A stretch of DNA of 62,633 nt, counting the filler, from Stramenopiles sp. TOSAG23-6 (lineage: Eukaryota): NCBI GenBank assembly GCA_900128565.1. It is 16 parts of 16 records of this genome, joined end to end, with 100 filler letters (N's around TTAATTAATTAA, not from the genome) between each part and the next. Parts side by side here need not be neighbours in the genome. Positions count along the whole stretch, not along the records: positions 39,301 to 43,110 come from LT637365.1; 15 more parts are not named here. One strand, written 5' to 3'. The notes under the pieces were generated by a model. That model saw only the letters and a list, made by a program, of their open reading frames with translations. It had not been told where the DNA came from and made no database searches. Both the position numbers and the translations under genes were made by a program. Shown here piece by piece: positions 1,687 to 57,900 of this stretch. The first letter of the stretch is position 1. Each line of letters begins with the position of its first letter.

Positions 1687-3363
1687 ATGGATTCTATGTC
1701 ATCTGATACGGCTGCAGGTGTTTGTTCAAGGCGTGAAGTTCAACTCTTCAAAGAAGCTTTTCTGCACTGTTCCAATGGCAAGAAATGGTTATCTTTTGAC
1801 TCTTTTGCTTTAGCTGTTGGAATTCCGATTCCACAAAATATATGCAAAACGAGTAATTTTATACATGCTTTATATCGTCTATACTCTGTAGATAGGTTAG
1901 GTCAGAAAATGGACACCACAGGCTTCGTAAAATGTATGGTACAGTTGGCATCAGGCAATAGACAATCCAAAATGAAACTTTTATTTGAGTTAGCCGACGT
2001 GGATAATGATAAACGTGTTCGAGTGAGTGAACTACTTGATCTTATCCGTGGAATGAAAGTATTATTCACATCACTTGATGGCCAAGAAAGTTCTATAGAT
2101 GATGAAATTTTACAAGAAGTAGTTCAAAAACTATTTCTAACATGTCCTAGTGACAAATCAAAATCAACTAATTCAAAAAATAATGGTAACTCAAAAAATA
2201 ATCAAAAAAAAAGTATCACTTTACCTGAATTTCAACGTGCATTATCAGAAAATGATGGTGTTTTAGAAGCAGCTCTTTCATTCAATTCAACATCTTCTGA
2301 TGAATGCTTCTCTACTCTAGACCGAGTTAATGTTTTAAATACAAAAGTAAACGAAATTCTTGAACATTTTTCTAACCCTAACCCTAGGGTTAATCTTGAA
2401 CAATCTTCAGTTAATGCTACAAAATTGACGTCAATCGATACCCCTAACCCTACCATAATAAAACACAATGAAATGAACAGTACAACAACAAATAGTATGA
2501 ATGAAGAGAATTGTCTTCGAGGATTGATATTATCAAAAAGAATTTCATTAGAGTTAAAATCATTACAACATGATTTATATAAAATTTTAGAATATAACCC
2601 TAACCCTAGAAGGAAAAATAACCCTAACCCTAGAAGGAAAAATAACCCTAACCCTAGAAACCCTAGAAGAAAAAAATGGAATTATCTTTGTGATGGAAAT
2701 ATTTTTCAAATGATACCAAAAATTTCTGGAGATTTTGAAGAAATTGAAAATCCAAAATTACGAACATTATACTTACAAGCAGAAAATGAAAGATTACGTG
2801 TACGTTTTTTTTGTCACATTTTTTTTTTTCATAGTAAAATTTTTCATAGTAAAATTTGTACCTAACGAAAAAAAAAAAAAAAAAAAAAAAATTTTTCAAT
2901 TTTTTTTTCATAGTAAAATTTGTACCTAAAAAAAAAAAAAAAAAATTTCTTCAATTTTTTCACAGTACATAAATTAATCAAACAATATGAAAAAAATCAT
3001 ACCATTTATTCAGAAAACCCTAACCCTAATGTAATTCATTCGATGATAAGTCAATATCGTGTTTATAGTACCGAATTAAATCAACAATGTGATATAAATG
3101 ATTATAGTGAAAACACTGATAATTTGTACTTACGACCTTTGCATACGTATGTTCTATTTATATTTTTTTTTTGAGATTTTTTGTATTTTGAAAATTTTTT
3201 TTTTTTTGAGATTTTTTTTTTTTTGAGAATTTTTTTTTTTTTTTAGAATTTTTTTTTTTTTGAATTTTTTTTTCGTACAAAATTTTGTCCCTAACAAAAA
3301 ATTTTAGATTTTTTTTTAATATTTTTCTACAATATAGTATCCTCATCATTCTCCAATGGATGA
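1687..3363 (+). CDS. EF-hand (calcineurin B/recoverin-like) domain protein, partial; introns 2800-2970 (GT-AT) and 3147-3337 (GT-AG)
   Basis: KMKLLFELADVDNDKRVRVSEL EF-hand motif; frame is kept across both introns. Confidence 0.75.
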
Positions 3364-3407
3364 NNNNNNNNNNNNNNNNNNNNNNNNNNNNNNNNNNNNN
3401 NNNNNNN

Positions 3408-3840
3408 TCATCCATTGGAGAATGATGAGGATACTATATTGTAGAAAAATATTAAAAAAAAATCTAAAATTTTTTGTTAGGGACAAAATTTTGTACGAAA
3501 AAAAAATTCAAAAAAAAAAAAATTCTAAAAAAAAAAAAAAATTCTCAAAAAAAAAAAAATCTCAAAAAAAAAAAAATTTTCAAAATACAAAAAATCTCAA
3601 AAAAAAAATATAAATAGAACATACGTATGCAAAGGTCGTAAGTACAAATTATCAGTGTTTTCACTATAATCATTTATATCACATTGTTGATTTAATTCGG
3701 TACTATAAACACGATATTGACTTATCATCGAATGAATTACATTAGGGTTAGGGTTTTCTGAATAAATGGTATGATTTTTTTCATATTGTTTGATTAATTT
3801 ATGTACTGTGAAAAAATTGAAGAAATTTTTTTTTTTTTTT
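3408..3840. repeat. Exact inverted copy of ~2932-3363 across an N gap (scaffolding artefact)
   Basis: Perfect reverse complement on each side of the N run; identical ORFs in both orientations. Confidence 0.85.
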
Positions 3841-4552: not shown

Positions 4553-7023
4553 TTATTCCTTTTTCAACCAGCTATATTCCCAAAACTCCCAATCACCACT
4601 ACTAACCAAATTTCTGATTTTGTCTTTCATTTGACCATTAGTTCTTCTTTTTGTACAAGAAAGTTCACACTTGGTCCTTACCTCTTGAAAAAAGGCTGAT
4701 GGTAAATTTTTCTTTGAACCTTTAGGGGGTATTAAACTTCTATTAGATCTTTCAAAAGCTTGTTTAAAGTCTGCTGTTTCTTCAGGTGTCCATTTCCTCC
4801 TCTTTTGCTGTTTTCCTTTTTTTGAAGCAGATTTACTTTTACCAGATGATTTACTTTTACTAGATGATTTAGATGGTGGATTTTCACTAACATATTTAGA
4901 ATAAATTGTCCCAAGTAGTTCATTCATAATTCTTTCTTGATTATCTTCCCAGTTAACAAAGTCAACAAAACGATCCTGAGCAATTTGATAATAAATAGTA
5001 TACTTTCTTTCCAATAATTGAACCCACCACAATGCAAAACTATGAGGACATAAATTGTCAAAGTCATGAAGTGAACTTTCACAATTTTTTGGAATGCCTA
5101 AGGGTACTAAATTACCTTTTACTATATCTTTTCTAAGTATATCAGAAATTTCTCTCTTGAAAACCTTTAAAAGAATAGGAGGTCTTTTTTCAACAAGCAT
5201 AAACTGATTATCTCTTTTAGCTTTATCTTTAACATCATCCCAAACACCATTAACAAAAAAAGAGATTTCATTTATAATCCTAATTGATCTCTTCTTATCA
5301 GTCAATGAATTACCATGAGGTTTAATAACAATACTATGAAACCTCTCAGGATTTTTATAAATATCCAAATGAATAATATTATGCAAAGTCTTATAAGATT
5401 TCAATTGTAATAGATTTTGTTTGTCATCATCTGTCAAATTTCTTGTTTCTTCTTCCTCATCTTTTGAAACAGCATTTATAACATTATTATCATTCTCCAC
5501 AATAATCAAATCACTAAAATCTTCAAAATTTTCAGTACTAGGATTTTTAGGATCAACAAAATCAGAATTTTCAACAAATTCAGAATACTCAGCACTATTA
5601 ATAAAATCATCAAACTCTTTTGAAGATGTAATATAATTACTTACAGCAGCAACATTAAAAAGTCTTGAAAAATGCTTCAAATACTTTGCCAATGTTTTAG
5701 AATCTTCTTTCCATCTATGTTGTCTAACAGTTTCTGGAATTCTTCCCATTACAGATTGATTCTTATTATTCATTAAAAAATTAATTGCCCATTCTAAAAT
5801 ATAACCAGCTCTAAAACCATGTGCAGAAGTCCAACCAAAAGGATATCCTGCAGCATATAATAATTCATGAATATAAGGATTTACTAAAGATGAAGCTTTA
5901 TCATTATCTGTATCAGGTTTCCTAAAGTCATGTAGAAACATGTTTTTTGGAAAAATATTTCAAAGAAAAATTGTTAGGTACAAAATTTCAAAAAAAAAAA
6001 AAATGAATTTGAAAAAAAATAAAACATACAAATTTTCCAAGTTTTTTCCATCACAATTTTTAAAATCACTCAAAATTCCATCTTCAAAGCCTCTATTTAT
6101 AAGAGTCCAATGCAACCAAAATACTAAGTCTATAAATATTTTCTTATGATCAGCAGTCTCATAATAAAGAGAACCTTCATAATCAATCTCATGACTAAAT
6201 CCAAATTCTTCACCTTTTGTGTGTTCATATGTAATAGTAACTTGAATTTTAGTATCAATATTAATTTCAGAAACATCTTTACCTTCTCTTCTATATTTTT
6301 GCTTTAAATAATTATATCTTCTTAATCTTTTAATAACATTTTCTTTATCATGTACTTTAACATTTTTAAGCTCTACTTTAGCATTTGTAGCCATCATTCT
6401 ATGTCCATTTATTAAACTGTGAAGACATATACAATATATTTTAGGTCCTTGTGGAGTTGAAATATATTGATTTATAATCATACCTTTCATATACATATTC
6501 CACATATCTTTATACAGTATTGCTGCAGCTCCCACAGAATCTTTATATTGTTCAGGTAATAATTGAAGATTAGGATCTCCATTAGTTTTTTTAGATTCTT
6601 GAAGAATTGATGTCATATATACTGAAATTGCTTTAAATGCTCCTTCAGGGGTAGGTAACACTGTATAATCTTTCCATATGATATTTTTTGTCATTATATA
6701 TTTCAACTTGTTCACATACATATCTTTAAAGCTATTATACTTCATTCTTTTTTTTTTCCCAAGTAACAAATTGACATTAACATAAAATCTGATAAAATCT
6801 ACATGCATTCTTCCACCATCTCCAAGAACTATATCTTCATCTTTAACATGTGGGTTTTCTAACAAAAATTGTTCTTTACACATTTCTGTAAACTCTGTGA
6901 AAGAATTTTCAACTGTTGCATATTTTTTTTTTGCATTATTTGTAAAATTAGGCAAAGGAGGTTGTGCAGCAAAGTTTATCATACTAGATGGGATACCATC
7001 TAATAAATTCCTGGATTGTCTTG
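4553..7023 (-). CDS. Tyrosine recombinase-like protein with C-terminal telobox-type Myb domain (779 aa from Met at 6982); GT-AT intron 5940-6029
   Basis: Candidate catalytic motifs in YR order: INGHR, HTKG, AHGFRAG (HxxR), HRW...LAKY. C-terminus RRKWTPEE...RTNGQMKDKIRNL. Frame is open back to an intron-type 3' end at 7024. Confidence 0.7.
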
Positions 7024-7074
7024 ATGTATTTTGGAAAAATATTTCAAAAAAAAAATATTAAAAATATTGTTACT

Positions 7075-8425: not shown

Positions 8426-9815
8426 TTACATTGAAAAAATACTTCTCATTTTCTGATAGTTTGAAGCATTTACAAGACGTGGCTTGGTTAAAATGAATGC
8501 ACTTGTTTTACACAATCCGGTATCATCGGTTTTATCATATTTATTTTTGTTTTTTTGTATTTCTCGGAACTCTGATAAAACAAATTTTGTCCGAGTTAAA
8601 TAAGGAAATGCCATTTCCTGATTAAATGTAGAAATCATGATATAACGGCCACCACGTCGAAGAACCCGTGAAACTTCAGATAGTAATTGTAATGCACTTT
8701 TATTTGCATCATTTAAATCACACGCGACAGAATCTGTGAGTCCTTTATCAATGATACAATCAAAGCTATAATGCTTGAAAAATATTTTTAAAATTTGAAA
8801 TTTGTTAGGTACAGAATTTTCTATGAAAAAAATATCGAAATTGAAAGATAAAAATGTACGTATCATTAGAAAATTCAAGTGATAAGACATCACCAACCTT
8901 ATATGTAATCCCTATTCTATTTTTATCTCTTTCCTTGGAAAATTGTATCGCTACCGGGGAACAATCCACGCCTGTAATATTTTTAAAACCATCATCATAC
9001 AAATTTGAAGTGACGTCACTTGTTCCACAACCAATATAAAGTATTTTATCGGTAGGTTTTAGATACTGCAGTAATATACTTCGAAATTCAGGATATTTCG
9101 CGTACCATTCTATTGAAAAATCACTTTTTTTGGCTTCGTATTCCTTGTTCCAAAATTGTTTTTCATGAAAAGATATATTTTTATATTTTCCTTGACGAGA
9201 ACCATTAGAGCTTGTAATTTGATGTTTATCATTTAAGAGTAATTTATCAATTTGAAGTTCTATAATCATAACAATGACGTATACTATTGGAATAATAAAC
9301 AATGCGAGAAGTATAGTTAGTTGTATAGGCCACCAGCGCAAAGATAAATAGCCATAACACAGTGTGTTATTTAATAGCTGAACACGAATTGGAGATATTG
9401 ATCGACTTGAGGATGCAAACGTATCAAATAAAGCATTTATACTTAACTCACCAGAGTTATTTGTTTCTGTTCCCGAAATGGGGTATATATCAAGTACAAT
9501 ATCTGACGGTTCCAACAAAGTGTCAAGTGGTGAGATTGGACGGATTTCACCAGTTTCCAATATAAGAGTAAGCCAGCCACGAAGCATTGTAAGAAAAATA
9601 AATATACCACACGCGCATAATACTGGTCTACATGTGAAAAAAATCCATAGGTCTGTTTTCATATGATATAATAAACGTTTTGATAATGCACGTACAAAGT
9701 GAGTCTTGGGTCGGTGCAAACTACTTTCTTTTCTTCCACCACAATTTACACACGTCCAAAATCCAAAACCTTTATTAGTGTTGAGAAAACCACAATCCTC
9801 ACAACACCAACTCAT
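8426..9815 (-). CDS. RanBP2-type Zn finger + hydrophobic segments + class I SAM methyltransferase (METTL13/EEF1AKMT4-like); GT-AG intron 8766-8859
   Basis: WCCEDCGFLN...CVNC; FWNKEY..EWY; ILYIGCGTS; spliced FSNDT|FDCIIDKG; EVSRVLRRGG. Confidence 0.8.
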
Positions 9816-15854: not shown

Positions 15855-17401
15855 CTGCTCCATTTGTACTTGACAATTTTGATAAATGTCCCGCAGTTTC
15901 TTCTAAATTCAAAGCATCAATTCCATATTTTTGTAAAGTTGTCTGAAATCCTTGTTTTGCTTCTTCGATTTCAGATTTTGATAATATATCTGGAATGACT
16001 AAAACACCATCTCGTTTGAATGTATTAATTTGTTCAATTGTGAGAAATCGTAAATTTTTTTTTTTCGTTACATTAGGGTTAGGGTTTATTTTTTTTTTCA
16101 AATTGTTCGTTACATTAGGGTTAGGGTTTATTTTTTTTTTCAAATTCTTCGTTAAAATCTCGATTTTTTTATGAATATCAGGTAAAGGTATAGAAATATC
16201 ATCATTTGTTTGTGTAGTAGGGTTAGGGTTATATTCAATATTTTTAGTTTTTAAATTTTTAGTTTTTAAATTTTTAGTTTTTAAATTTTTAGTTTTTTCT
16301 TGAAGTTTTAAAAGTCGTTTTTGTCGTCTAAATTCTTTTAATGGTAATCTTGTAGTACCTAAAGAAGATTTCGTGTGTAGTTCCTTTGAACGACTAGGGT
16401 TAGGGTTATTTTTTTTTGAACTATAGTTTGTATTTTCATGTTTTAAAATGTCATTTAATACTCTCAATATTTCTGCATTTGGTTCATTCTTTCCATTATA
16501 TCTGGAATGAACAAATAATATCTCTGAAGAATTAGGGTTAGGGTTTTGAATATTTGTAAGAACGTTTCGGAATCGAATCAACGTAAATGCATTTTTATCT
16601 CTTCCAAACATTTGACATGTATTGTAAAAAAAATTAAATTCGAAATCGGTTAGGTACAAAATTTCGTACGAAAAAAAATAAATTTGAAATTCATAATGAA
16701 AACGTACTTCATAATGAAAACGTACGAGATTCTTCTAGAAAATTTGCATTTTTATATACTATATTGTACAAGAATATTTCAAATTTGAAATTGGTTTAGT
16801 AAACACATCAAAAAATAAAAAAATAATATCAAAAAATATATGATTTGTATAAAGTATGGAGAAAAAAATATATGAAAAAATGAGACATACACTCATGGGC
16901 AGGAATCATCATACCTAAAGAGTCCAAGACAATGTCATCATAATTGTTAGCACTACAAAAATTGATCACTATGCGTAACAAACGCTTTGCTATACCTTGT
17001 CGTCTATATGACCGTTTTACACACATATGTTTAAGCTCTGCTGTACTTTGGACTTGTTTTTCTTGAACTTGTCTATTTGCGTTTGGGGGGTTTTGTTTCA
17101 TTACCGCACAACAACCGATAATCACTTCACCATCCGACTCATTTACGACAGCAACCCAAAATGAATTACAAGATACATCAATAAATCGACGTATTACTGT
17201 AGAAGCAGATGCAAGGTCAAGTTTTAGCTGTCTTTTTACGAATTTTATTATTGAAGTGTTACCGTCACTAATGTCTAACATTGATTTTGCAAATAGTTCC
17301 CGTACGCCAACGATATCCTCAATAGCAAAAGGACGAAACGAAACGGGTACAGAATTATCGCATATACCATTCGCTGGACTATTTTCTTTTGAAACTATCA
17401 T
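15855..17401 (-). CDS. GNAT acetyltransferase joined to a PhyH-like dioxygenase N-terminus, partial; introns 16759-16890 (GT-AG) and 16617-16725 (GT-AT)
   Basis: AELKHMCV..YRRQGIAKRL, spliced AHELYKNANF; downstream FLTIEQINTFKRDGVLVIPDILS. Confidence 0.7.
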
Positions 17402-41210: not shown

Positions 41211-41866
41211 ATGTCAGCACAACAGAAAAACTCAGGGCCACGGCGCTGTGAAAATTGTAACTCGATGGATATCGATAAAAAAGATGGAGGTGATGAACTT
41301 GTTTGTTATAGTTGTGGTACTGTTTTTGAAGAAAATACTCTAATCAACTCTGTAGAGTTTAATGATACTGCTGGTGAAGCCTTTGGTCATTTTGTGGGAG
41401 CGTTATCATCACGTCCATTTTCATCAGGACTTGGTTTTCGTTCATATCAACGCGATTCTCGTCAGGTCACAATCAACAATGGTAAGAGAATCATAAATAG
41501 TATTTGTACTTCTGTGAATATCAATACACAAAGTAGTATATCAGAACAAGCAATGCGATTATTTCTTCTTGCAGTCAATCATAATTTTATACAAGGTCGT
41601 AAAACAACTGACGTTTGTGCAGTTTGTGTATATATGTATGTTTTATTATATTTTTTTTTTTTTGGTTTTTTCGTACGAAATTTTGTACCTAACAAAACAT
41701 TTTTAGATTTTTTTTTTTGAAATATTTTCCAAAAATACATTTGTTGTCGTTGGGAAAAATCACCACAATTATTAATTGATTTTTCAGATCAGTTACAAAC
41801 AAATGTTTATGTATGTTTTATTATGTTTTTTTTAATTTTGAGTAAATTTAGTAAATTTTGAAATTT

Positions 41867-42229: not shown

Positions 42230-43110
42230 TTTTTCACAATATATGTAGAGAACTTACGTTGTGGACTGATTTATCCGTTGTGTTTTTATATGGAAATAAA
42301 GAAGCAAGAGAAATTTTTAAAAATGAAGAAATTACAAAAAAAGGAAAAACATTAATACCAAAATTTGATGTATTAATCACAACATATATATGTTTTATTT
42401 TTTTTTTTTACAAAAAAATCGAATTTATTTTTTTTTTATAGTAAATTTTGTACCTAACAAAAACAAAATTAAAAAAAAATATTTTTTCACAACATATGAA
42501 GTATGTATCAAAGAGGAAGAATTTTTATTACATTTTAATTGGAATGTTGTTGTAGTGGATGAAGCTCATCGATTAAAGAATAGAAATAGTCGTTTAGCAT
42601 GTACGTTCTTATTTATTTCATACGGAATTTTGTACCTAAAGAAAAATGGATTTTTTTTTTTTAAATTTTTTTTACAAAAATTTCAAATCTAACAAAAAAA
42701 AAAAAAAATTTTTAAAAATGAAATATTCCATGACAATACATTGACTATGGATAATCTGTCCTATAATTCATGTGTACTTCTTACAGGTACGCCTGTTCAA
42801 AATAATATGTCTGAATTACAATCATTATTATCTTTTATTGATGTACACAAATTTGGTGAAAATGTAAGTTTTATTTTTTTGAAAATTTGAATTTTTTTTT
42901 CGTACGAAAGTTTGTACCTAACATTTTTTTTTTTTTTTTTTTAAATATTTTTCCAAAATATATGGTTCAATTGATTTTGATGCTGAATTTGGAGAAATTT
43001 CATCAGGAAATGTCAAACAATGTCAAAAACTACAAAAATTATTAAGGAAATATATGTATGTTTTATTTTTTTTTTTACAAAAAAATCGATTTTTTTTTCG
43101 TACGAAATTT
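42075..43110 (+). CDS. SNF2/CHD-type helicase fragment; introns 42085-42244, 42388-42497, 42601-42741, 42864-42963, and one starting at 43056
   Basis: [30 protein letters not shown]. Confidence 0.9.
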
Positions 43111-43907
43111 NNNNNNNNNNNNNNNNNNNNNNNNNNNNNNNNNNNNNNNNNNNNTTAATTAATTAANNNNNNNNNNNNNNNNNNNNNNNNNNNNNNNNNN
43201 NNNNNNNNNNATGCCTCTTTTAGATCCAAGTGCTAAATTGAAGCCCAGAAAATTCAGGAAGTGAATTGAAAAACTAGATTTTGCCTTCATTTTGAGTGTT
43301 TTACAGTGGGGAAATTCGCCATGAAATAGTAGAGTTGGCCTTTTAAAGTTAGTATTTTCTGAAACTACATGCAATAATGGTGTATATACCTTGTCGATTA
43401 GGGATGATATTAGTTTTCAATCAACTTTTCAAGGTTTGAAACAAGCTTGGCATGAGAATGTCTAGAATTGACTTGGGTTTGGACAAGCCAATTTACCAAA
43501 AGTCATGAAAAAAATGGAAGGTAAGAAAATTAGGCTTTAAAAGTTTTGCTAAAGGCATCTTTGTAGAGGGTGTAGTTGTTTGTATGACACTGTGTGTGAT
43601 AGCAGTCTCCATAGAAGGCTCTATATTGAGCCAACAAGAGACTAAAAAGAGGTCAAAAATTTCCCGTGTTTTACTAGTGATTAACTAGTGAAACCGCCAA
43701 AAATGGCAAATTGAATTTTTTTTTGATATTTTCGTGATTTCGTACTTATCCGGGAGCCTTAAAACAGTTCTACTTTATATTATTATCCTGATATACAATA
43801 CCAAACCAAACCTGTATACATTACCTGTACACGTAATCTATGTCATAGCAAAGTTTTCCCATTCACGGTAATTGCACAGCAACTGATTCTTTCGAGTCTT
43901 ACTATTC

Positions 43908-44860
43908 ATGGAAATGTTATCTTCAGCGCAAGATAATGGTGGGGTAGAGCCTCATTTAAAGTCTCATTCTGAAAAGTATGAGATATTTATTAGTAATCCA
44001 GACTTTAAATTCAATGCAGCGCACTTTATAGCTTACAAAGGATATCGAGAACGTCTACATGGCCACAATTATCGTGTATCTGTTCGAGTTAAAGGGCGAC
44101 TTGGTTCAGATGGATATGTTGTTGACTTTGGGGATATTAAAAAGTCAACGAGACGAATCTGTAAAAGTTTAAACGAGGTATTTATTTGTCCTACTTTAAG
44201 TGATTGTTTGAATATAACTCATGTGAATAGTGTAGACGGTAAAGCTGGAAATATTGATATAGAATGTGAAGATGGTGCGCGATTTAGTTTCCCATTTGGT
44301 GATTGTGCCATGCTACCTATTGCCCATACTTCATGCGAAGAGCTAGCGAAATATGTGTGTTTTCAGGATCAATTTTAAATTTATTTATTTTTCGTACGAA
44401 ATTTTGTACCTAACAAAAAAAACAAAAAAAAAGAAAATATTTTCCCAAAATACATGTGTGTAATGTCATACTTGAAGATATGAAAATTTCCGAGTTACAA
44501 TCCCGTGGAGTTTCTTCTTTCGAAGTCGGTGTCGCAGAGCGTAAGAATCAAATGGCACTATACGCTGTTGATATATTACCAAAAGTGTCTCAAAATAATT
44601 TGGTTCCACCTAATCTCAAAATGTCTGATTTGAATCTGTCTGATAGAGAATCCAATCTCAAAATGTCTGTTTTGAATCAAGTTAGTCCTGGAATGATTAC
44701 TACTATTTGTGATGAAAGTGATGATAAAAATATTGATGATGATAAAAATATTGATGATGATAAAAATATTGATGATGATAAAAATATTTATGATGATAAA
44801 AATATTGTTGTAAGCGATGGTAATGAATCAAACGATACAAGTAGTAGCAGTGAAATATAG
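43908..44860 (+). CDS. 6-pyruvoyl-tetrahydropterin synthase / QueD family; GT-AT intron 44355-44455
   Basis: FNAAHF, ERLHGHNY, VVDFGDIK, EELAKY|V, EVGVAE. Confidence 0.9.
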
Positions 44861-45069: not shown

Positions 45070-46738
45070 CTATACCCATTCTTTTGGTTTACCTTGAAGT
45101 AAATCCAATGTTTTTTTTTCTGGACTATCCAACTCAGGAATATTTTTATACTCATAACGGACAGTAAGTGGAAGTGACATTAATACTGCTTCAATATCAA
45201 CACCAGGTACATGTATTTTGAAAAAATATTTCAAAAAAAAATTTGAAAAAATTGTTAGGTACAAAATTTCGTACGAAAAAAAANAAAAAAATTCGNAANT
45301 NAAAAAAAAATAAAACATACAGCATATCCAAATTTCGTACCTCGATCATATACCAAGTTAAATTCAACATACCGACCATGCCTTAATGCTTGCCATTCTT
45401 TTTCTTTAGTAGTGTATGGCATATTCATTCGTTTTAATAAAATAGGCCAATAACAAGGAACAAAAGCTTTTACACAATCTTGTACAAACGATAAAGATGA
45501 TGATTGTAGAGTTTGTTCATTTGGTGTAAGTAGTGTGAAACGATATTTTAAATTCGAAATTCGTTAGGTACAAAATTTCGTACGAAAAAAAAATAAATTT
45601 GAAATTCATGATGGAAACGTACAATTCTACTAGAATCATCTCGATGTGAAAGAAACGAAAGTGCACTATTTACTTTTTCATTATTTGTATTATTATTTAC
45701 TTTTTCATTATTTGTATTATTATTTGTTGTAACTGTATTCGTTTGTGATTTATATTGGTGAATATTCGTGAAATCGTCAAAAAATATTCCTCCAATGCCT
45801 CTCGCTTCTGCTCTTGCTTTGTTATAAAAATGTATTTTGGAAAAATATTTCAAAAAAAATTCAAAAAAAATTGTTAGGTACAAAATTTTGTAAGAAAAAA
45901 AAAAAAAATTAAAACATACATATGTATCACAATCAGTTTTCATTATTGAGTATCGACTTTTAGTACTATTGTCATTTTTATCATGTTTATCACAGACATT
46001 TTTTAACGTTTTATGAAAATGTTTTGCATCGTCTTCAAATAAATAAATCGGAGTTAAATCAGTTCCTCCTCCAAACCACCAAGAAACAACTTCATCATCA
46101 TCATCTGTTATTTCAAAATATCTATAATTAAAATGTACAGTGGGTGCCATTGGATTGACTGGATGTAATATCCCACTTAACCCACACACCCACATTTGTA
46201 AATTAGGGTCACTTTCATGGCTAGGTTGTGTATTACAAGTTTGCTCTTTCTTTTCTACCTTTTTATCCATTTTTCGCTTTTGAAGTTTTTCGCGCAACTG
46301 AGGATGATTTGCAGACATTTGTCGAATAATTGCTGGTGTAAGTGAGCGTGTCATGACTGTGAGACCAACTCCAGCTTTTTCAAAAACTCGACCATCTTGT
46401 AAAACTGCAGTTAACTTGAGAGCTCGTTTAGACGATTTATCACGGCGCCATGTTACAATTTTCGTATCATCTGGAGCAGCAATAGACGCAGCTTTATCTT
46501 CTAATGAAGCAACACGATTGCATATATCGTGCTGTACCTGTACTAGTGTATTAATCATGGCTCTACGTGTGCTATTATTTCGAGATAAGTCGTTGCCTCC
46601 AAGAAAGTCTGACAATGTTGACGTATCGTCAGGGAGTGCAGGCGCACTACAACTACAATTGTCTGAATATTGACTTGTTGCATATATAGAGACGCCAGCA
46701 ATAGCTGACGATGCAAATAACATACATCTTGAAGTCAT
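45070..46738 (-). CDS. CPOX: Oxygen-dependent coproporphyrinogen III oxidase (divergent); introns 45830-45919 (GT-AT), 45528-45622 (GT-TT), 45211-45320 (GT-AT)
   Basis: [63 protein letters not shown]. Confidence 0.9.
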
Positions 46739-47184
46739 CGCTGGTGTATTGTGTTTCACTTTTTGGTGGTTGTAGAATAGTAGATATCGAAAGTTATATC
46801 ATATAATATGTTTCTTTTGGCTAAGAGCGAAGCGTCCAGAAGTACTAGGGACTTTCCACTAGAGATTTTTTTTTTCTTTGTAGCCCTAACCCTAGGCTTG
46901 TCGTTTTGTGGTACCCGGTTCCATCGGTTCGCTCGCAATATTTGAATTTGCAAAAAGGTGAACAGTGAGCAGTGAGCGAAATAGTGAACATTGAGCGAAA
47001 AATGGATAAAAAGGTAGANNNNNNNNNNNNNNNNNNNNNNNNNNNNNNNNNNNNNNNNNNNNTTAATTAATTAANNNNNNNNNNNNNNNNNNNNNNNNNN
47101 NNNNNNNNNNNNNNNNNNGTTAGGTACAAAATTTCGTATGAAAAATAAATTCGATTTTTTTGTTAAAAAAAAAAATAAAACGTA

Positions 47185-48301
47185 CATCTTTTGCTTGTTT
47201 CTTTATTAAATCTAGGATATGTTGATGATCATTTGCATAAGCAATCATTTCAGGTGTAGAACCATCAGTAGATGCCTTATACACATTTGCACCATTAAGT
47301 ATTAGCATTATAGCCGTCTGCATCTGACCTCTTTCAGCTGCATAATAAAATGGTGTAAAACCTTGAGCATCGCCTTGATTACAAAAGTCTCTTGCTTGTA
47401 TATAACCCTGTTCACCTCGTTTTTTAGCAGCATTTAAAACAATAGATAGACAAGTTTCCTTTCCCCATTTTGCCGCTTCGTGACATGCTGTAGCACCATT
47501 TATACTTCCACCACAACAAACATCTGCACCAGCTTTTAATAGTGTTTTTAGTGAATCTATTTGTCCATGTCTTGCTGAGAGTGCAAGTGCAGTCACGCCA
47601 CCACTATCACTGGGTGCATTCAAATCGGCACCTCCCTTAATTAAAATTTCCATAGCCTTAATTTGTCCTTCCATTGATGCTAGTCCAAGTGGAGTACAAT
47701 AATCAGTTTCTATTGCCTGAGAATTTAATGGAGCGCCTACATGTATAAGTAAATGTAGACATTCAAAACTTGACATTTGTGCAGCAATGTGTAGAGGAGT
47801 GAAGCCTCGACAGTCACGCAATTGTAAGTCTGCACCAGCGTCAATACAAAAACGTAAAGCATTTGATTGATTGTTTTCCGCTGCAGCGTGAGCAGGTGTC
47901 TCACCGGAATAACTAGCTTTATTCACATCAGCACCTTTAAAACATAAAAACTTCACAGCATCTGCATGTCCTTGAAAAGCAGCTGTTAGCATTGGAGTTT
48001 TACCAGCGTAACTAGAGTGTGAAGTATCAGGATTTTTCAGGTCATTTTCAACTTGTAGCTGAATAGTTCGAACACGCCCATCTGCAGCAGCTGCGCACAT
48101 AGATGGACCTTCGGTATAATGTTGATCTATATCTGTATTCTTAAACTGAAGGAAAGCTACAAACTCTTCTCTTGTAATATTTCCATTTTGGTCCTTTTTA
48201 CAAAGTTTCCACTCTTCTTCATCAAACTCGTCACCTGAAAGCTTTCTTATTGTCTTTTCATCTAATATAGGCGGTAAACCACTTGATATTACTCCTCCCA
48301 T
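47185..48301 (-). CDS. Ankyrin-repeat protein with MG (myristoylation-like) start, first exon
   Basis: About 8 ankyrin repeats (TPLHIAA etc.). Confidence 0.9.
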
Positions 48302-48578
48302 TGTAGACTATTGGTTTCGTTGTAGCATTTTGTACTGAGTATTCAAAAATGAAAAATGCATTAGATCTTTGACTATTCCTTCCTTCATTATTAAGTCAGT
48401 TACATCGATTTTTTTTTGCTATTTATTTGACAGCATTTGTGATTAATGTCCAATCATTATCTCGAATTTTCGCGACTCATATCATCAATCACGAATGACA
48501 GTTAGCTAAGTTGGAATAATATTATTATTTTATTTATCATCAGATTCTTTGTTTCGTTTTAAAGAACAATATTGAATC

Positions 48579-49284
48579 ATGGCGACAGAGTCAAAGCAAT
48601 ATTCCTCTTGGGATTTGCAAGAGGATCATTCAGGAGATACTGCTGATAGTATAAAGCGAGTCGCATCAGAAGAAGTATTTCGTCGACTGCGTGGTAAAAG
48701 CATTGACCAACTTTCTCCTGGTTGGTTTCATCCGGCTCGTAAACTGAATAAGCCAACGGCTGTATTTAGTTTAGTCTCAACTATAGTTGGTGGTGGTGTT
48801 TTATCTCTACCATTTGCCTTTGCAAAAATGGGAATTATCGTAGGACCTTTGCTTCTCTTCACATGCGCTATCCTATCAGAATATTCAATTTCTTTACTAA
48901 TTAAATGTGCTCGTATGTCTGGTGCTGAGTCTTATGAACAGGTTGCAAGCTCAGCATTTGGTAAGAATTCCAAAATAGTTACAACATTGCTTATATTCAT
49001 TCTTACATTTATATGCTGTGTAGCGTATATTATTCTCATGGGAGATATGTGGGGCCCTCTAGTCAGTTATGTGTTTCATTTCAATACAGAAAAAGGAACT
49101 TCAGGTCGAACATTTTTGCTCATCGCGTGTACGTTTCCATCACTACTTTCAATTTTATTCTTTTCATAGAAAATGTCCTACCTAACGATTATTTTTTAAA
49201 TATTTTTTCATAATACATGTACAGCGCTTGTTGCCCCGTTCGGGGCTCTTCGTTCTTTACACGCTCTTCGATTCACATCAGTAT
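48579..49284 (+). CDS. Amino-acid transporter (AAAP/SLC38 family), N-terminal part; GT-AT intron 49129-49218
   Basis: FSLVSTIVGGGVLSLPFAF, SYEQVA..AFG, spliced LVAPFGALRSLHALRFTS. Confidence 0.88.
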
Positions 49285-49396
49285 GTATGTTTTATTTTTT
49301 TTTTAACAAAAAANATCGATTTTTTTTTTCGTACGAAATTTTGTACCTAACAATTTAAAAAAAAAAAAAATTTTGAAATATTTTTCCAAAATGCAT

Positions 49397-50814
49397 GTTG
49401 TTGCTGTAATGAGTTTCTTAACTAGATGCCAATGCCCTCGTGAACAATATGAAATACTTTCCGTGATTCTGAAAACAATTCATCCCAATAACCCTAACCC
49501 TAGTGTACGTTTCGTTTTTTCCATACGAATTTTTATAATTTTTATAATTTTTTTTTTTTTTTTATTTTTTTTAAAATTTTTTTTTTTAATTTATTTTTTT
49601 TTATTGTCAGAAAATTTCGTACCTCACAACAAATTTATAATCATCAGAGCTTTTGAAATATTTTCCTACAATACAAAATAATAAACAAAATAATACTCAA
49701 AAACAAAAAATGTCTACGCCTAATTTAAGTGATTCATCTATATGCAATCATAAACTACTTCGACTATGTAAAAGTTTAGTTGGTGTGATTTGTACAATTC
49801 AAGATAAGCAAACTCATGCACGTTTTCAAAATTGAATTTCAAATTTATCTTTTTTTTTTTATAGTAAATTCTGTACCTAACGAATTTTGACTACATTTTT
49901 TTTTTCACAATATAGGAGAGAATTCAAATGGATGAAATGAATATTCGAAATAGATTGTCTTCAATGGATCTTTTATTTTCTTCTCAACCTGTGCAAATAC
50001 GTGATTCTAACCCTAACCCTACGTCTCTTTATAATAAAAACGACTCAAATATGAAAAATAATAATTCAAAAATGAAATATGATTTACATATATCAAGTAA
50101 TATATTACATGTGAAAAATAATTCAAATAATTCAACTGATACGTCTACTATAAAGAATAATGTATGTTTTATTTTTTTTTATTTACCGAAAAAAAAAAAT
50201 CGATTTTTTTTTTTTTTTTCATAGTAAATTTCATACCTAACAAATCTTTAATTTTTTTTTTTGAAATATTTTTACAAAATACATGTAAGTGGTATCGACA
50301 TTTTACTGTTTTTATTGAAATCACCTGCTGCAGAAGTTAGACATATGTATGTTTTATTTTTTTTTTTTTGTATGAATTTTTTTTTTTTGGTTTCGTACGA
50401 AATTTTGTACCTAACAATTTTTTTAGAATTTTTTTTGAAATATTTTTTCACAATACATGAAAAGTCTTAAACAATCCAAAGAATTAAGTCTTGCATTACT
50501 TAAAAAGAAACAAAATGATGATGCAATATCAAGTGGCCATACTACAGAAGGTTTTGAAAAAGCAAAAGAAGGGTTGCAGAAACAAGTTGAAAAACTTCAA
50601 CAAGAAAATAATAAAAGAGAGGCTGCAGATTTTCAAAAATTACAAAAGTCTCAAGAAATGTTAAAAAATGAATTACAAACACGAAATCAAATTCTGGGAC
50701 AACTACATCAATTATCTGCATCATTAAACAAATTACATTATAGACAAGCAGCAAAAGAAGTAAGCTGGACATTGTCTAAAGGTGAGCATCATTTTACAGA
50801 AGGAGAGGATCCAT
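49397..50814 (+). CDS. Exons of one or two unrelated soluble proteins (possibly BEACH-protein-like and coiled-coil)
   Basis: Short in-frame exons separated by family introns 49505-49676, 49818-49915, 50162-50284, 50347-50458; not transporter-like. Confidence 0.45.
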
Positions 50815-50818
50815 GTAC

Positions 50819-50861
<43 letters not shown>

Positions 50862-50871
50862 AATTTTTTCC

Positions 50872-50920
<49 letters not shown>

Positions 50921-51024
50921 TTTTNNNNNNNNNNNNNNNNNNNNNNNNNNNNNNNNNNNNNNNNNNNNTTAATTAATTAANNNNNNNNNNNNNNNNNNNN
51001 NNNNNNNNNNNNNNNNNNNNNNNN

Positions 51025-52138
51025 CATGAAAAAGATGGTCACGATCATAAACATGAAAAAGATGGTCACGATCATAAACATGAAAAAGATGGTCACGATC
51101 ATAAACATGAAAAAGATGGTCACGATCATAAACATGATCATAAAAAATCGGAGAGTCATTCCCATACAACTCATAAGCACAAACATCATAAGCATGTCCA
51201 ACGGCATGATGCGTTAGTAACGTCTGTTGGATTCGTTGAAGAAGGTAAACTTGATTTTGACGTGTTAAATCATTGGATCACTGAATTTTTACTTTTAAAT
51301 GGAATAGAAAAAATATTTCGTTTAAAAGGATGTTTAGATATTGAAGGTGAAGATAACGTGTTTGTGTTACAAGGCGTTCACCAAGTATGGAATATGTCTC
51401 CATTCGGTAAATGGCCTGAGAATACAAAACGAAAGAGTAAAATTATTTTTATAGGTAAAGGTCTTGATAAAGAAGAAATAAAACTTGGTTTCAAAGGTTG
51501 TGTAATTGGCACTGATGAGCACAAAATTGCTCGTGAACAGCTGGAAGAATTGTGGGACAATGAAGAAGAGGAAAGACAACGTCAATTGAAATTTGATCAA
51601 GAAAATACAGAATATGACGTCACTATTCATAATGGACAAAATGGGTTAGGTTTACTCCTAAAACAAGAAGTTAGTGTCCAAGGATTCCCTGAAGTTCGTG
51701 TTGCTGGTTTTCGTCCACTCGCCAAAGGCCTTGTCAATAATGTACGTTTAATTTTTTTGAAAATTCTAATTTTTTTTTATAGTAAATTTTGTACCTAACA
51801 TTTTTTTTAGATTTTTTTTGAAATATTTTTCCAAAATACATGCTCGTATGTCAAACAAAATTGCACCAGGAGATATTCTTATTGCAATCAATGGATCATC
51901 TGTACGTGGGCTTCCACTTATTCCAAATGTTGTATCTTTATTAAGACAATTTCCTCGTGGTGAAGGTTCCATGGGTGCGATGATCACACTTACGTTTCGT
52001 ATGGGTGATTCCAATTATATGCCATTAGCTCAAGTGCAAGGCTTAAATAATGTCCCAAACCCTAACCCTAATAATAAACGAAATCGGGTAGAAAATGATG
52101 CTGCTCCAGCACCTAAAAGACAGCGTAGTGCTGCGTAA
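51025..52138 (+). CDS. CobW/COG0523 C-terminal domain + PDZ, with His-rich 27-bp repeats; GT-AT intron 51742-51841; 5' partial
   Basis: IFRLKG.L, FVLQGVH, SKIIFIGKGLD; GLGL..., KIAPGDILIAING. Confidence 0.85.
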
Positions 52139-54929: not shown

Positions 54930-57900
54930 ATGTATTTTGGAAAAATATTTGAAAAAAAATCTTAAAAAATTTGTTAGGTACAAAATTTTTTTACCAAAAA
55001 AAAAAAAAAATAAAACATACATGCAAATGAAACAAAATATGTAAACGGCGGGATCGCAAATCCATATAATATAAATACTAAAATCACAGATTGAAGACTT
55101 TTGTCACTCGTTCTAACATATGCATCCATTTCAAATAAAAGTAGAATAATCAAACTTAAAATAAAAGGTAAGAGAAAAATACAAAAATCCCAAATGTAAT
55201 TGGATAACCAATATGTATATACATTAATTCCAGAAACAAGTTGTAAATGTTTTGATTTTTGTTGCCTCTCTCGAACGATATGAACACAAAATTGCGCAGG
55301 GACAAATGCAAAGCCGAGAGAGATAAAAATTGAAGCAAATAAACCTTGAATTCCTCCAATGATTTATTTTGGAAAAATATTTCAAAAATTTTCTAAAAAA
55401 AAATTGTTAGGTACAAAATTTTTTTACCAAAAAAAAAAAAAATCGATTTTTTTGTTAAAAAAAAAAAAATAAAACATACATTGTTTGTTCGGGTAAAGTT
55501 AGAGGAAGAGGGTAATTGTTGACACGTATCATTGGTATTTCATCTTTGCTATGACTCAATTTCGTTGCGGATATCCAACGCAATACTGAATTAGATAATG
55601 TATTCAATGCAAGTGGGGCTCCATGTATTGCAGTGTAATTATGTATTAGTGTTGCTCTAGTTACAGATATTATACTTGTTTGATTATTTTTAAATCCTGT
55701 ATTTGACAAAATTCGTGATGCAAATTCTTTTGAATTGATTTCAGCATCAGGTAACCAAAGTCCAATATATCTAGAACTAGCCTGATTATTTCTAGATGCT
55801 TCAAAATAATCAACAATATTCTGTAATCGATTTTTTTCAGTTATATTATTTCGTTGTGTATCAAATGGTGGGAGGAAGGAGGTGACATCAATAGGTTCAA
55901 GACGTTCTTTTTCCAGAGATTTTGAAGATAAAAAACCAAACCCTTTCAAATGTTTTACTAATAAAGATATTGTACTAGATGTTGATGAACTACAAGAAAC
56001 ACCATCACCAACATAATCATCAATACATTTACATTGATTTTCTTTTTGTTTTTCCATAGATGAGTCACAATTGGCTAATACACTACAAAATCCCATGCCA
56101 CACTTTTTTCCAGAATGTCCAACGTTATCACGATAATTAAGAGCTCCCATATCTTTTGTATCAGGAATATGAGGAAGTTGAGGAAAAAGACCACTTTTTG
56201 ATAAGACACTTTCCCAATCAAATGGAATATTATTCATGAATGATTGAAATAAATCCAATTCTGATTTTGCTGAAATTGCTACTTGATCGTTATACGATAA
56301 TCTTTTTTCATATCTAAATCTACTTTCCGAAATAAAAGGTACAATATTTCTCATATCTCTCTGCCCTGAATTCATAAATTCCATGGTAATAGGTATAGAA
56401 TGTATTGTAGAAAAATATTTCAAAAAAAAATCTAAATTTTTTTGTTTTTTTTGTTAGGTACAAAATTTTTATAAAAAAAAAAAATCCATAGTAAAAAAAA
56501 AAAAAAAAAAAAACATACATGCGACTGTGGGGAAGGAGATGTTATCAATGCAATCATAGCTAGTAATACAAACAATGCGGGTAGTAACGCTGTAGTTGAG
56601 ATAGCTCTATAATCGCGAATGAAATAAATAATTCTTTTATGAAGTAAAGCTTTCAGATTTGAACTAAACGTCGTCGGTTTCGTTGGAACAGAACCTCCAT
56701 ACGATACACAATTATTTGAAGTAGTAGAACTCTGTGACATGTCTGTCGTGTTTAGAATAGTTTTCGACTGTGGAATGTGTTTGTGTAAAACAGTAGTGAT
56801 ATCATCATCATTATCATCATATGGATCATTATCATATAGATCATTATTATTAAACAGTAATGAAATGGCTGATGCTTTTGCTACCTCCGAAGATATTGAT
56901 GCAGATATATTTTCTTTTGGTTGATGTCGATTCGATTTTGTATTTTTTGTATTTTTTGTATTTATGTTTTGATTTGATTTTGTATTTGTATTTATGTTTC
57001 GAGTAGACTTTGGATTTATTTTGTTTTTTGTATTTTTTGTATTTGTATTTATGTTTCGAGTAGACTTTGGATTTATTTTGTTTTTTTCCGACGTACATCT
57101 AGAATGATCTATATTACTTTTTTTTTTTTTTTTTTGTACCAAATTCCGTACCTAAATGACCACACGTCATTGTATGGTTAATATTTCCACTATTTCCAAC
57201 TTTTAAAAATACTTCTTCTAATGTAGTTACAGATAATCCAAAATTTAAAATTCCTAATTTGTCTTTTTTTGTATTTATTTCCATTAATAATTCCTCAAAA
57301 CAATTTGAGAATTCAAATGGGAGATGAAAACTAATTTCAGCACCAATATTTGATAATAATGAAGCCTCTGGGCAATACGTATAAATCAAATCGCTAATCA
57401 TTGATGTTTTGGTTTCATCATTTCCATCATTTCCATCATTTTCATCATTTCCATCATTATAATGAGTAATACTAGTACAATCATGATCAATATTTTTTAT
57501 TTGTAGTGATTTTTCAAAAAATATTTGATACCCACAGCCATACATTTTTTTCAAAAATAATGAAGAACCAACACAACTTAATTGTCCATCAGACATGATC
57601 GCAATACGATCTCCCAACAAATCAGCTTCATCTAAAAAATGAGTTGTCAAAACAATGACTTTGCCTTGGCGATGTTTTTTTATCACAAGTATTGTGAAAA
57701 AATATTTTTATTTTTTTTTATTTTTTTTGTTAGGTACAAAATTTACTACGAAAAAAAAAAATTCATACAAAAAAAAATAAAACATACATCCCACGTAAAA
57801 CGTCTCGAATATGGATCCATCCCGCTTGTTGGTTCATCAAGTATAACCACTTTTGAATCGCCTAGTAATGCATGTATTTTGAAAAAATATTTAAAAAAAA

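Follow-up and report, generated by a model that had tools for sequence, protein, structure and literature searches.

The window, by which we mean the whole 62,633-nt stretch of DNA analysed here, is AT-rich (22–39% G+C per 2 kb). From position 41211 on the plus strand it carries two exons of a BRF1 gene, separated by a 105-nt intron that begins with GT and ends with AT. The parts of this locus are as follows.

41211–41635 (+): BRF1 exon 1, from the ATG onward; aligns with residues 4–131 of the TFIIIB 70 kDa subunit (E 4.9e-16)
41636–41740 (+): focal BRF1 intron, GT...AT, 105 nt; placed by homology, with 151+39 open codons obtained with this end alone
41636–41647 (+): 5' block GTATGTTTTATT, the 5' splice site, with GTATGT at 41636
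41672–41693 (+): middle block CGTACGAAATTTTGTACCTAAC, comprising the palindrome GTACGAAATTTTGTAC and then the branch motif CCTAAC (41688–41693)
41692 (+): presumed branch A
41701–41706 (+): skipped TTTTAG, 14 nt past the presumed branch A
41720–41738 (+): 3' block AAATATTTTCCAAAAATAC, recognised by motif enrichment and per-position counts
41739–41740 (+): terminal AT, in the usual place of AG (the family ends AT in 32, AG in 4 and TT in 2 of 38 copies)
41741–41810 (+): BRF1 exon 2; ICCRWEKSPQLLIDFSDQLQTNVY aligned with Brf1 residues 132–155

Protein alignment of both exons indicated that excision of exactly 41636–41740 joins residues 131 and 132 of yeast Brf1, since the second exon, read from the intron's last AT, corresponds to residues 132–155. 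Because the two exons are contiguous at 131|132, the 105-nt removal is exact. An earlier note on this DNA had named the gene BRF1, and the match of exon 1 to yeast Brf1/TFIIIB 70 kDa bears the name out; a long-protein search with exon 1 found no relatives. The same note had drawn attention to an unused TTTTAG downstream of CCTAAC, and the sequence at 41701–41706 is exactly as it described. Its further point, that use of this TTTTAG would keep 34 nt and frameshift BRF1, agrees with both the reading frame (34 mod 3 = 1) and the homology at Brf1 131|132.

The window strings together contigs of about 3.9 kb from a fragmented draft, linked by N44-TTAATTAATTAA-N44 spacers (e.g., 27439–27538 and 47019–47118). 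Block length declines gradually along the window, from 3937 to 3903 nt, which shows that the contigs were sorted by size; adjacent blocks are not genomic neighbours, and genes are cut at block ends. A 191-nt element with its flanks occurs twice in inverted orientation, at 3147–3337 (+) and 3434–3624 (−), around an N gap at 3364–3407. This pair looks like a chimeric inverted duplicate, a kind of product that arises in whole-genome amplification.

Several other genes give clues to the host. The gene for 6-pyruvoyl-tetrahydropterin synthase (PTPS; 43887–44354, +) has chains 2a0s and 1y13 as its best solved relatives (E 3e-38 to 4e-36), with the other chains among the matches listed at 5e-6 or weaker. 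We take 2a0s and 1y13 to be Plasmodium enzymes, and the match is a lead to the host lineage. Tracts of low complexity that are very rich in asparagine and threonine, typical of AT-rich protists, occur in the 854-codon frame P0123 (28749–31310, −) and as an insert within CPOX (45650–45760, −). The host is probably a protist, because its proteins are asparagine-rich and the PTPS relatives are, on our reading, Plasmodium enzymes. Among the CPOX matches, those with names come from insects, fungi and a chlorarachniophyte. An Atlas search pointed to no lineage, and comparison with papers on diplonemids, foraminiferans, ascetosporeans and Amoebophrya confirmed none of these as the source.

One relative, the source of P0124, is 95% identical, and another, with 56–59% identity, is present in EukProt. 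The single 1186-codon frame at 31726–35283 (−), with WD40 and fn3 domains, corresponds to two adjacent gene models of the EukProt relative, g2317.t1 and g2316.t1, which split exactly at residue 554/555; the relative's annotation may have been broken there by an unrecognised intron. A large gene at 4556–7057 (−), with 342+461 codons across an intron at 5940–6029, had no Pfam or PDB match, and the same was true of protein P0122. The large gene contains the stretches ...SAHGFRAGY... and KRRKWTPEE, which bear a loose resemblance to tyrosine-recombinase and Myb-like motifs.

A repeated intron family

Most genes of this AT-rich marine eukaryote are interrupted by copies of one intron-like element of about 100 bases. 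The block motif AAATATTTTTYYAMAATAY gave 62 matches at ≤3 mismatches, compared with 6.64 ± 2.63 in 100 shuffles (maximum 14). For the family census, 50 rows were aligned at the block, 13 were removed as spurious, duplicate or cut by N, and the intron at 2800–2970 was added. This yielded 38 curated copies possessing the 3' block, of which 32 have both ends. Eleven of the rows removed were 2717, 2718, 41096, 50078, 58489, 60873, 28299, 28068, 27759, 600 and 54722; the other two were 15744 (N-cut) and 3434 (inverted duplicate of 3337). The 38 copies are spread over 62 kb in unrelated genes, including BRF1, CPOX, PTPS, FYVE, SNF2, an ABC transporter and others.

All follow the layout GTATGTTTTATT… CGTACGAAATTTTGTACCTAAC … (TTTTAG) … GAAATATTTTTCCAAAATAC+2, in which three conserved blocks (5', middle and 3') are set apart by runs of A or T that vary in length, and the middle and 3' blocks are near-palindromes. 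The 5' end was GT in 31 of 32 copies (30 of the 31 tallied, plus intron 8859–8766, which begins GTACAT), and the 5' hexamers among 31 copies included GTATGT 15 times and GTACGT 7 times. The branch motif CCTAAC, with T runs after it, was found in 34/38 copies, and the final base of the 3' block was C in 30/37. The intron's last two bases were AT in 32/38, AG in 4/38 and TT in 2/38; the last three were CAT in 28/38 and TAT in 3/38 (CAT was 27/37 before the copy ending at 2970 joined the tally). Immediately upstream of GT, the dinucleotide was AT in 18 of 32 copies, with GT (4), TT (3), TG (2), CT (2) and more among the others, and the first exon base 3' of the intron was G in 23 of 36. Two U2-type features, GT with an extended 5' consensus and a branch motif followed by T runs, are thus present in the family, and the third, a terminal AG, occurs in 4/38.

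The ends of the element form an inverted repeat of ~6 nt, (AT)GTAT/ATAC(AT). The exon flank equals the last 2 nt of the intron in 18/32 copies, which is not significantly different from the 14.8 expected if the two were independent. Features resembling target-site duplications were single cases: TT/TT at CPOX intron 2 and a 10-nt repeat in the helicase gene. Scans of genome_contigs and metagenome_contigs with two 22-nt family blocks returned 0 matches.

Two further observations concern sequences that resemble parts of the element. In the ABC-transporter gene, a 43-nt GT...AG intron at ~57109–57151 (−) resembles a shortened family copy, with its start at the middle-block palindrome (GTACGGAATTTGGTAC) and its end at AATATAG; it lacks CTAAC and restores the frame. 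Tandem TTAGGG pairs (GGGTTAGGGTTA / CCCTAACCCTAA) adjoin family-like middle blocks at ~16390–16410 (+) and at 29600–29625 (−) / 29760–29775 (+).

Position of the 3' cut

The longest open frame is in itself an unreliable guide to intron ends, since frames run on through the T- and A-rich tails of the introns. We therefore used a three-offset test, which kept the longest upstream frame and compared three candidate 3'-end offsets for the length of the downstream frame. Since T-rich tails remain open, frames fix the intron end modulo 3 alone. The position two bases past the 3' block (block+2) gave the longest downstream frame in 22 of the 26 testable copies (binomial P~1e-7 against 1/3). Four copies came out differently, one tied and 5 were untestable; of the 4 misses, one (815–690) was rescued by FYVE homology.

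Junctions were placed by reading frames and protein homology, and spliced RNA weakly backs one of them. When the exon flank repeats the intron-end letters (AT in 18/32 copies), the junction can slide by 1–2 nt with the mRNA unchanged. Homology set six junctions exactly: those of BRF1, CPOX introns 1 and 3, FYVE, PTPS and the CHD1L-like helicase. Individual introns beyond BRF1 are listed here.

45830–45919 (−): CPOX intron 1, GT...AT, with the stretch past the branch motif free of AG; joining the exons restores Y|F, both invariant in 60/60 homologues
45528–45622 (−): CPOX intron 2, GT...TT, exon flank TT; 392+75 open codons, in a variable protein region
45211–45320 (−): CPOX intron 3, GT...AT, exon flank CT; gap-free over 12 protein letters at the junction
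44355–44455 (+): PTPS intron, GTGTGT...ACAT; an AG 20 nt past the branch is skipped
690–815 (−): intron within a FYVE finger; an AG 16 nt past the branch is skipped
42601–42741 (+): intron of an SNF2/CHD1L-like helicase, GT...AT; placed by homology spacing
42388–42497 (+): variant copy with A at +1 (ATATGT...ACATAT) in the SNF2/CHD1L-like gene; 74+64 open codons
2800–2970 (+): intron with a skipped CAG 5 nt before its end; the AT end gives 378+67 open codons, the CAG a stop after 3
50347–50458 (+): intron with a skipped TTTTTTTAG (ends 50426); 31+155 codons, and the sole junction with RNA support
51742–51841 (+): intron with a skipped TTTTTTTTAG (ends 51810); 239+98 codons
8766–8859 (−): family copy ending AG at block+2; 370+112 codons

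The junctions of CPOX introns 1 and 3 are gap-free against an HMM built from 60 homologues; intron 3 is unable to separate the possible registers because its alignment column is variable. For PTPS, the alignment to chain 1y13 runs to residue 141 with the first exon and resumes with the second at residue 143, which pairs with query residue 2; the two exons are therefore contiguous, with a junction at 141|142. In the FYVE finger, exon 2 begins at profile position 13 (junction 12|13), and the junction creates a CxxC (C-Y|S-C). The helicase exons around 42601–42741 correspond to residues 140–172 and 180–211 of CHD1L chain 7otq_K, with exact spacing. At the variant copy 42388–42497 in the same gene, the next exon aligns from its first residue. 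The junction at 8766–8859, ..SNDT|FDCIIDKG, we read as a methyltransferase motif.

An AG lies between the branch motif and the junction in 17/38 copies, 10–36 nt from the branch A, and the frame would shift in 13 of these 17 if the earlier AG were used. Ten of the 17 skipped AGs are just 10–16 nt from the presumed branch A, a distance at which ordinary spliceosomes also tend to skip AG. The CAG skipped in 2800–2970 is 36 nt from the branch. In CPOX, none of the three introns has an AG ahead of the junction, and the first one past it falls 13–49 nt inside conserved coding sequence. In the four AG-ending copies the end is likewise at block+2, a position that therefore accepts AT and AG alike. 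Ends at block+2 are mostly CAU|, which means that the last intron base need not be G in this organism.

Two candidate determinants of the 3' site can be set aside. The first AG past the branch is out, given the skipped AGs in 17/38 copies and the CPOX introns without any. A fixed distance from the branch is out as well, because the presumed branch-to-end distance ranges from 32 to 55 nt across copies, whereas the block-to-end distance is constant.

The earlier note had argued that first-AG scanning fails to explain the junctions and that the cut tracks the block, and the counts given above for skipped AGs, frames and distances agree with it on both points. We also found the further unused AGs to which it referred, ending at 51810 and 50426 and inside 690–815, and its account of the CAG near 2970 was accurate: splicing there leads to a stop after 3 codons, compared with the long open frames given by the AT end. 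At the sequence level, its interpretation is supported.

RNA evidence and alternative modes of removal

Sequence words were found in seawater metatranscriptomes alone (6 runs from 3 studies, shares 0.06–0.14), and exon contigs from such runs match at 99–100%. These two observations indicate that the organism is marine. RNA mapping covered 47119–50924 (3.8 kb) with assembled metatranscriptome contigs from 4 runs, here called X1, X2, X4 and X5, in which exon contigs are sparse. On this stretch, 666 and 831 contigs were placed from X1 and X2, respectively. Depth was in the thousands in intron-repeat bins and in single digits on most exon bins, which points to many copies of the element. Most of the contig joints reported link two intron copies and were set aside as repeat artefacts.

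Contig 15 of run X2 (249 nt, depth ~5, 5 differences) matches 50457–50700 and then has 5 unmatched letters. It fits the AT junction of 50347–50458, since the preceding exon also ends in AT, and it rules out an unspliced transcript as well as one spliced at the AG that ends at 50426. For contigs derived from other loci, the similarity ends precisely at two intron ends, 50284 and 50459. Three contigs, from X2, X4 and X5, match no further than 50808, a point 6 nt (in frame) short of a predicted GTACGT at 50815. An alternative site, an indel between strains or an assembly error could account for this break. RNA from this stretch thus has one contig in accord with a predicted junction and one place, 50808, at odds with the model. 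A 30-letter loose-end consensus at 49508 had no match within the window, and Rfam and tRNA scans of the window gave 0 matches.

Orientation bears on whether the elements leave at the RNA level. Copies are in the sense orientation of their flanking frames in 24 of 28 cases, the remaining 4 being short ambiguous frames, and no copy among the 28 is clearly antisense inside a coding frame. This bias favours removal from RNA. The converse, that the elements are excised from DNA in expressing nuclei or mark dead gene copies or assembly artefacts, strikes us as barely credible. A fragmented draft assembly with chimeric inverted duplicates, and elements with short inverted ends, would suit such an account, but it sits poorly with the sense bias, with the presence of elements in the essential and conserved genes BRF1, CPOX, PTPS and SNF2, whose frames are intact on both sides, with the abundance of element sequence in poly(A) RNA libraries, and with exact restoration of the frame in 22/26 copies. 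Ciliate-type IES, which are eliminated from DNA irrespective of the gene's strand, are a poor match: 24/28 copies are sense and 4 ambiguous, and the standard genetic code reads all genes.

A second question is the register of the ends. If the exon ends in AT, the registers GT..AT, TG..CA and AT..AC give identical mRNA. GT..AT is the sole register with uniform ends across copies, and it makes the AG-ending copies canonical. We regard it as very unlikely that the true register is AT...AC (|ATGTATG...AATAC|AT), with processing like that of rare AT-AC introns through pairing of a first-base A with a last-base C. The mRNA would be the same in the 18/32 copies with an exon end AT, but the 14/32 copies without AT before GT would have mixed 5' ends, against GT in 31/32. 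The 3' block does end in C in 30/37 copies, while the AG-ending copies are canonical in the GT register alone. Copy 42388–42497, with A at +1, can be read as AT...AC through a 10-nt direct repeat, CACAACATAT, present at both of its junctions; because of this repeat, GT-type and AT...AC registers are inseparable there, and the copy could be a case of natural covariation between first and last base.

Introns of the U12-type or AT-AC class have 5' /ATATCC or /GTATCC and a TCCTTAAC branch 10–15 nt from the end. The 5' sequence here is GTATGT or GTACGT, not /ATATCC, and the branch motif is 32–55 nt from the end. These two features count against AT-AC processing, and they set the family apart from the U12-type class.

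The ends could also, in principle, pair with each other. An account in which the RNA is removed without an ordinary spliceosome, with pairing of AUGUAU and AUACAU joining the junctions as proposed for nonconventional introns, is in our judgement highly improbable. Centroid folds of 4/6 introns do include a 6-bp helix between the ends, but the folds are no stabler than shuffles (z −1.4 to +0.9) and there is no covariation, seven GTACGT copies retaining A at the position that would pair. No such pairing is open to copies that end TT or AG with flanks TT or AC. Nonconventional introns with paired ends are described in the available text of PMC12621601 and PMC7789003; here the borders are uniform, not variable, and the invariant GT and strong CUAAC are spliceosomal signals. 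The family does not match the nonconventional class of euglenids, diplonemids and Amoebophrya, given the uniform borders, the helix of only ~6 bp and the fold z-scores.

Proposed mechanism and comparison with known systems

We think it likely, judging from sequence, that the family consists of introner-like U2-type introns in which the 3' block of the element itself fixes the 3' site and A-U replaces A-G. One repeated, transposon-like element would generate these spliceosomal introns and carry a near-complete splicing code. It would supply the 5' site GTATGT, a strong branch motif UACCUAAC directly after a small palindrome, and U-rich runs together with a conserved 3' block of ~20 nt, GAAAUAUUUUUCCAAAAUAC. 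The 3' cut would fall two bases past this block, with A as the penultimate base and usually U (CAU|), sometimes G, as the last. The start of exon 2 would then be decided by a local block rather than by the first AG or a fixed distance from the branch.

We infer that the spliceosome removes the element and that the A of CUAAC serves as the branch point. Some protein or RNA presumably reads the 3' block, and the family would have spread by transposition. A more specific proposal, which we consider unlikely, is that a dedicated reader of the 20-nt block GAAAUAUUUUUCCAAAAUAC, and not AG, specifies the 3' site two bases downstream, in which case the code would be that of a mobile element to which the spliceosome of a protist lineage, unrelated to tunicates, adapted independently. 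Under that proposal, either a U2AF-like protein that has diverged or a small guide RNA would be a candidate reader.

A terminal AG is almost universal in spliceosomal introns, and the very few genomes with wholesale loss of it show how 3'-site recognition can drift. One family with a textbook 5' site and branch motif and only the last base swapped is a clean system for studying second-step positioning without AG. It also bears on whether transposons can impose a splice code of their own. On the practical side, almost all genes of this organism will be broken up by gene finders built on the GT-AG rule.

Our literature search, which covered main texts, found no paper describing this intron family, nor any protist with a GT...AT class throughout its genome. 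On that search, a family with GT...AT ends and a fixed 3' block appears to be new; introns with 3'AT and introners were already known. In canonical U2-type introns the first AG after the branch is chosen, and an AG very near the branch is skipped. Like them, the family has GT, branch motif and U-tract in the usual order, A at −2 and G at the exon start in 23/36. Unlike them, the last base is U in 34/38 copies, and good YAG sites 17–36 nt from the branch are passed over.

The marine protist Amoebophrya also has repeated introns with short direct and inverted repeats at their borders, as described in the available text of PMC7789003. According to that text, more than 60% of its introns are non-GT-AG, with no clear terminal dinucleotide signature and with inverted repeats of 8–20 nt, and the nuclear genes quoted there have ~54–58% G+C. 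The present family has uniform GT...AT borders and an inverted repeat of ~6 nt, in DNA of ~30% G+C.

Introners, known from Micromonas, Aureococcus, dinoflagellates and many aquatic eukaryotes, offer a closer parallel. As far as the available portions of PMC12130899 and PMC11282704 describe them, they share with this family many near-identical copies in unrelated genes, an element that brings its own splice signals and a marine host; the short inverted repeat at the ends may be a further parallel. Introner surveys accepted only 5' GT/GC/GA/AT and 3' AG/AC as familiar ends (PMC12130899, available text). The family differs from the introners of those surveys in its 3' AT, and its flanks, which equal the last 2 nt in 18/32 copies against 14.8 expected, give no significant sign of target-site duplication.

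The closest known case, going by the available text of PMC13326754, is that of the fritillariid larvaceans Fritillaria borealis and F. pellucida. There, 3'AT is the commonest 3' end (44% of introns in F. pellucida, 34% in F. borealis), the last three bases are YAY, which often also precedes the 5' site, and a U-rich tract is present. A transposon (introner) origin is proposed, with removal by the U2-type spliceosome and divergent U2AF paralogues implicated (PMC13326754). The present family likewise has 3' AT on a large scale, a YAY end (CAT or TAT in 31/38), YAY before the 5' site (TAT, CAT or TAC in ~13/32) and a U-rich tract. Whereas AG/AC and AG/AT dominate in F. borealis, the 5' end here is GT in 31/32 copies. 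Unlike what that text describes for Fritillariidae, the copies here belong to one family that has a yeast-like branch motif and a fixed 20-nt 3' block, and its host looks like an AT-rich protist rather than a larvacean tunicate.
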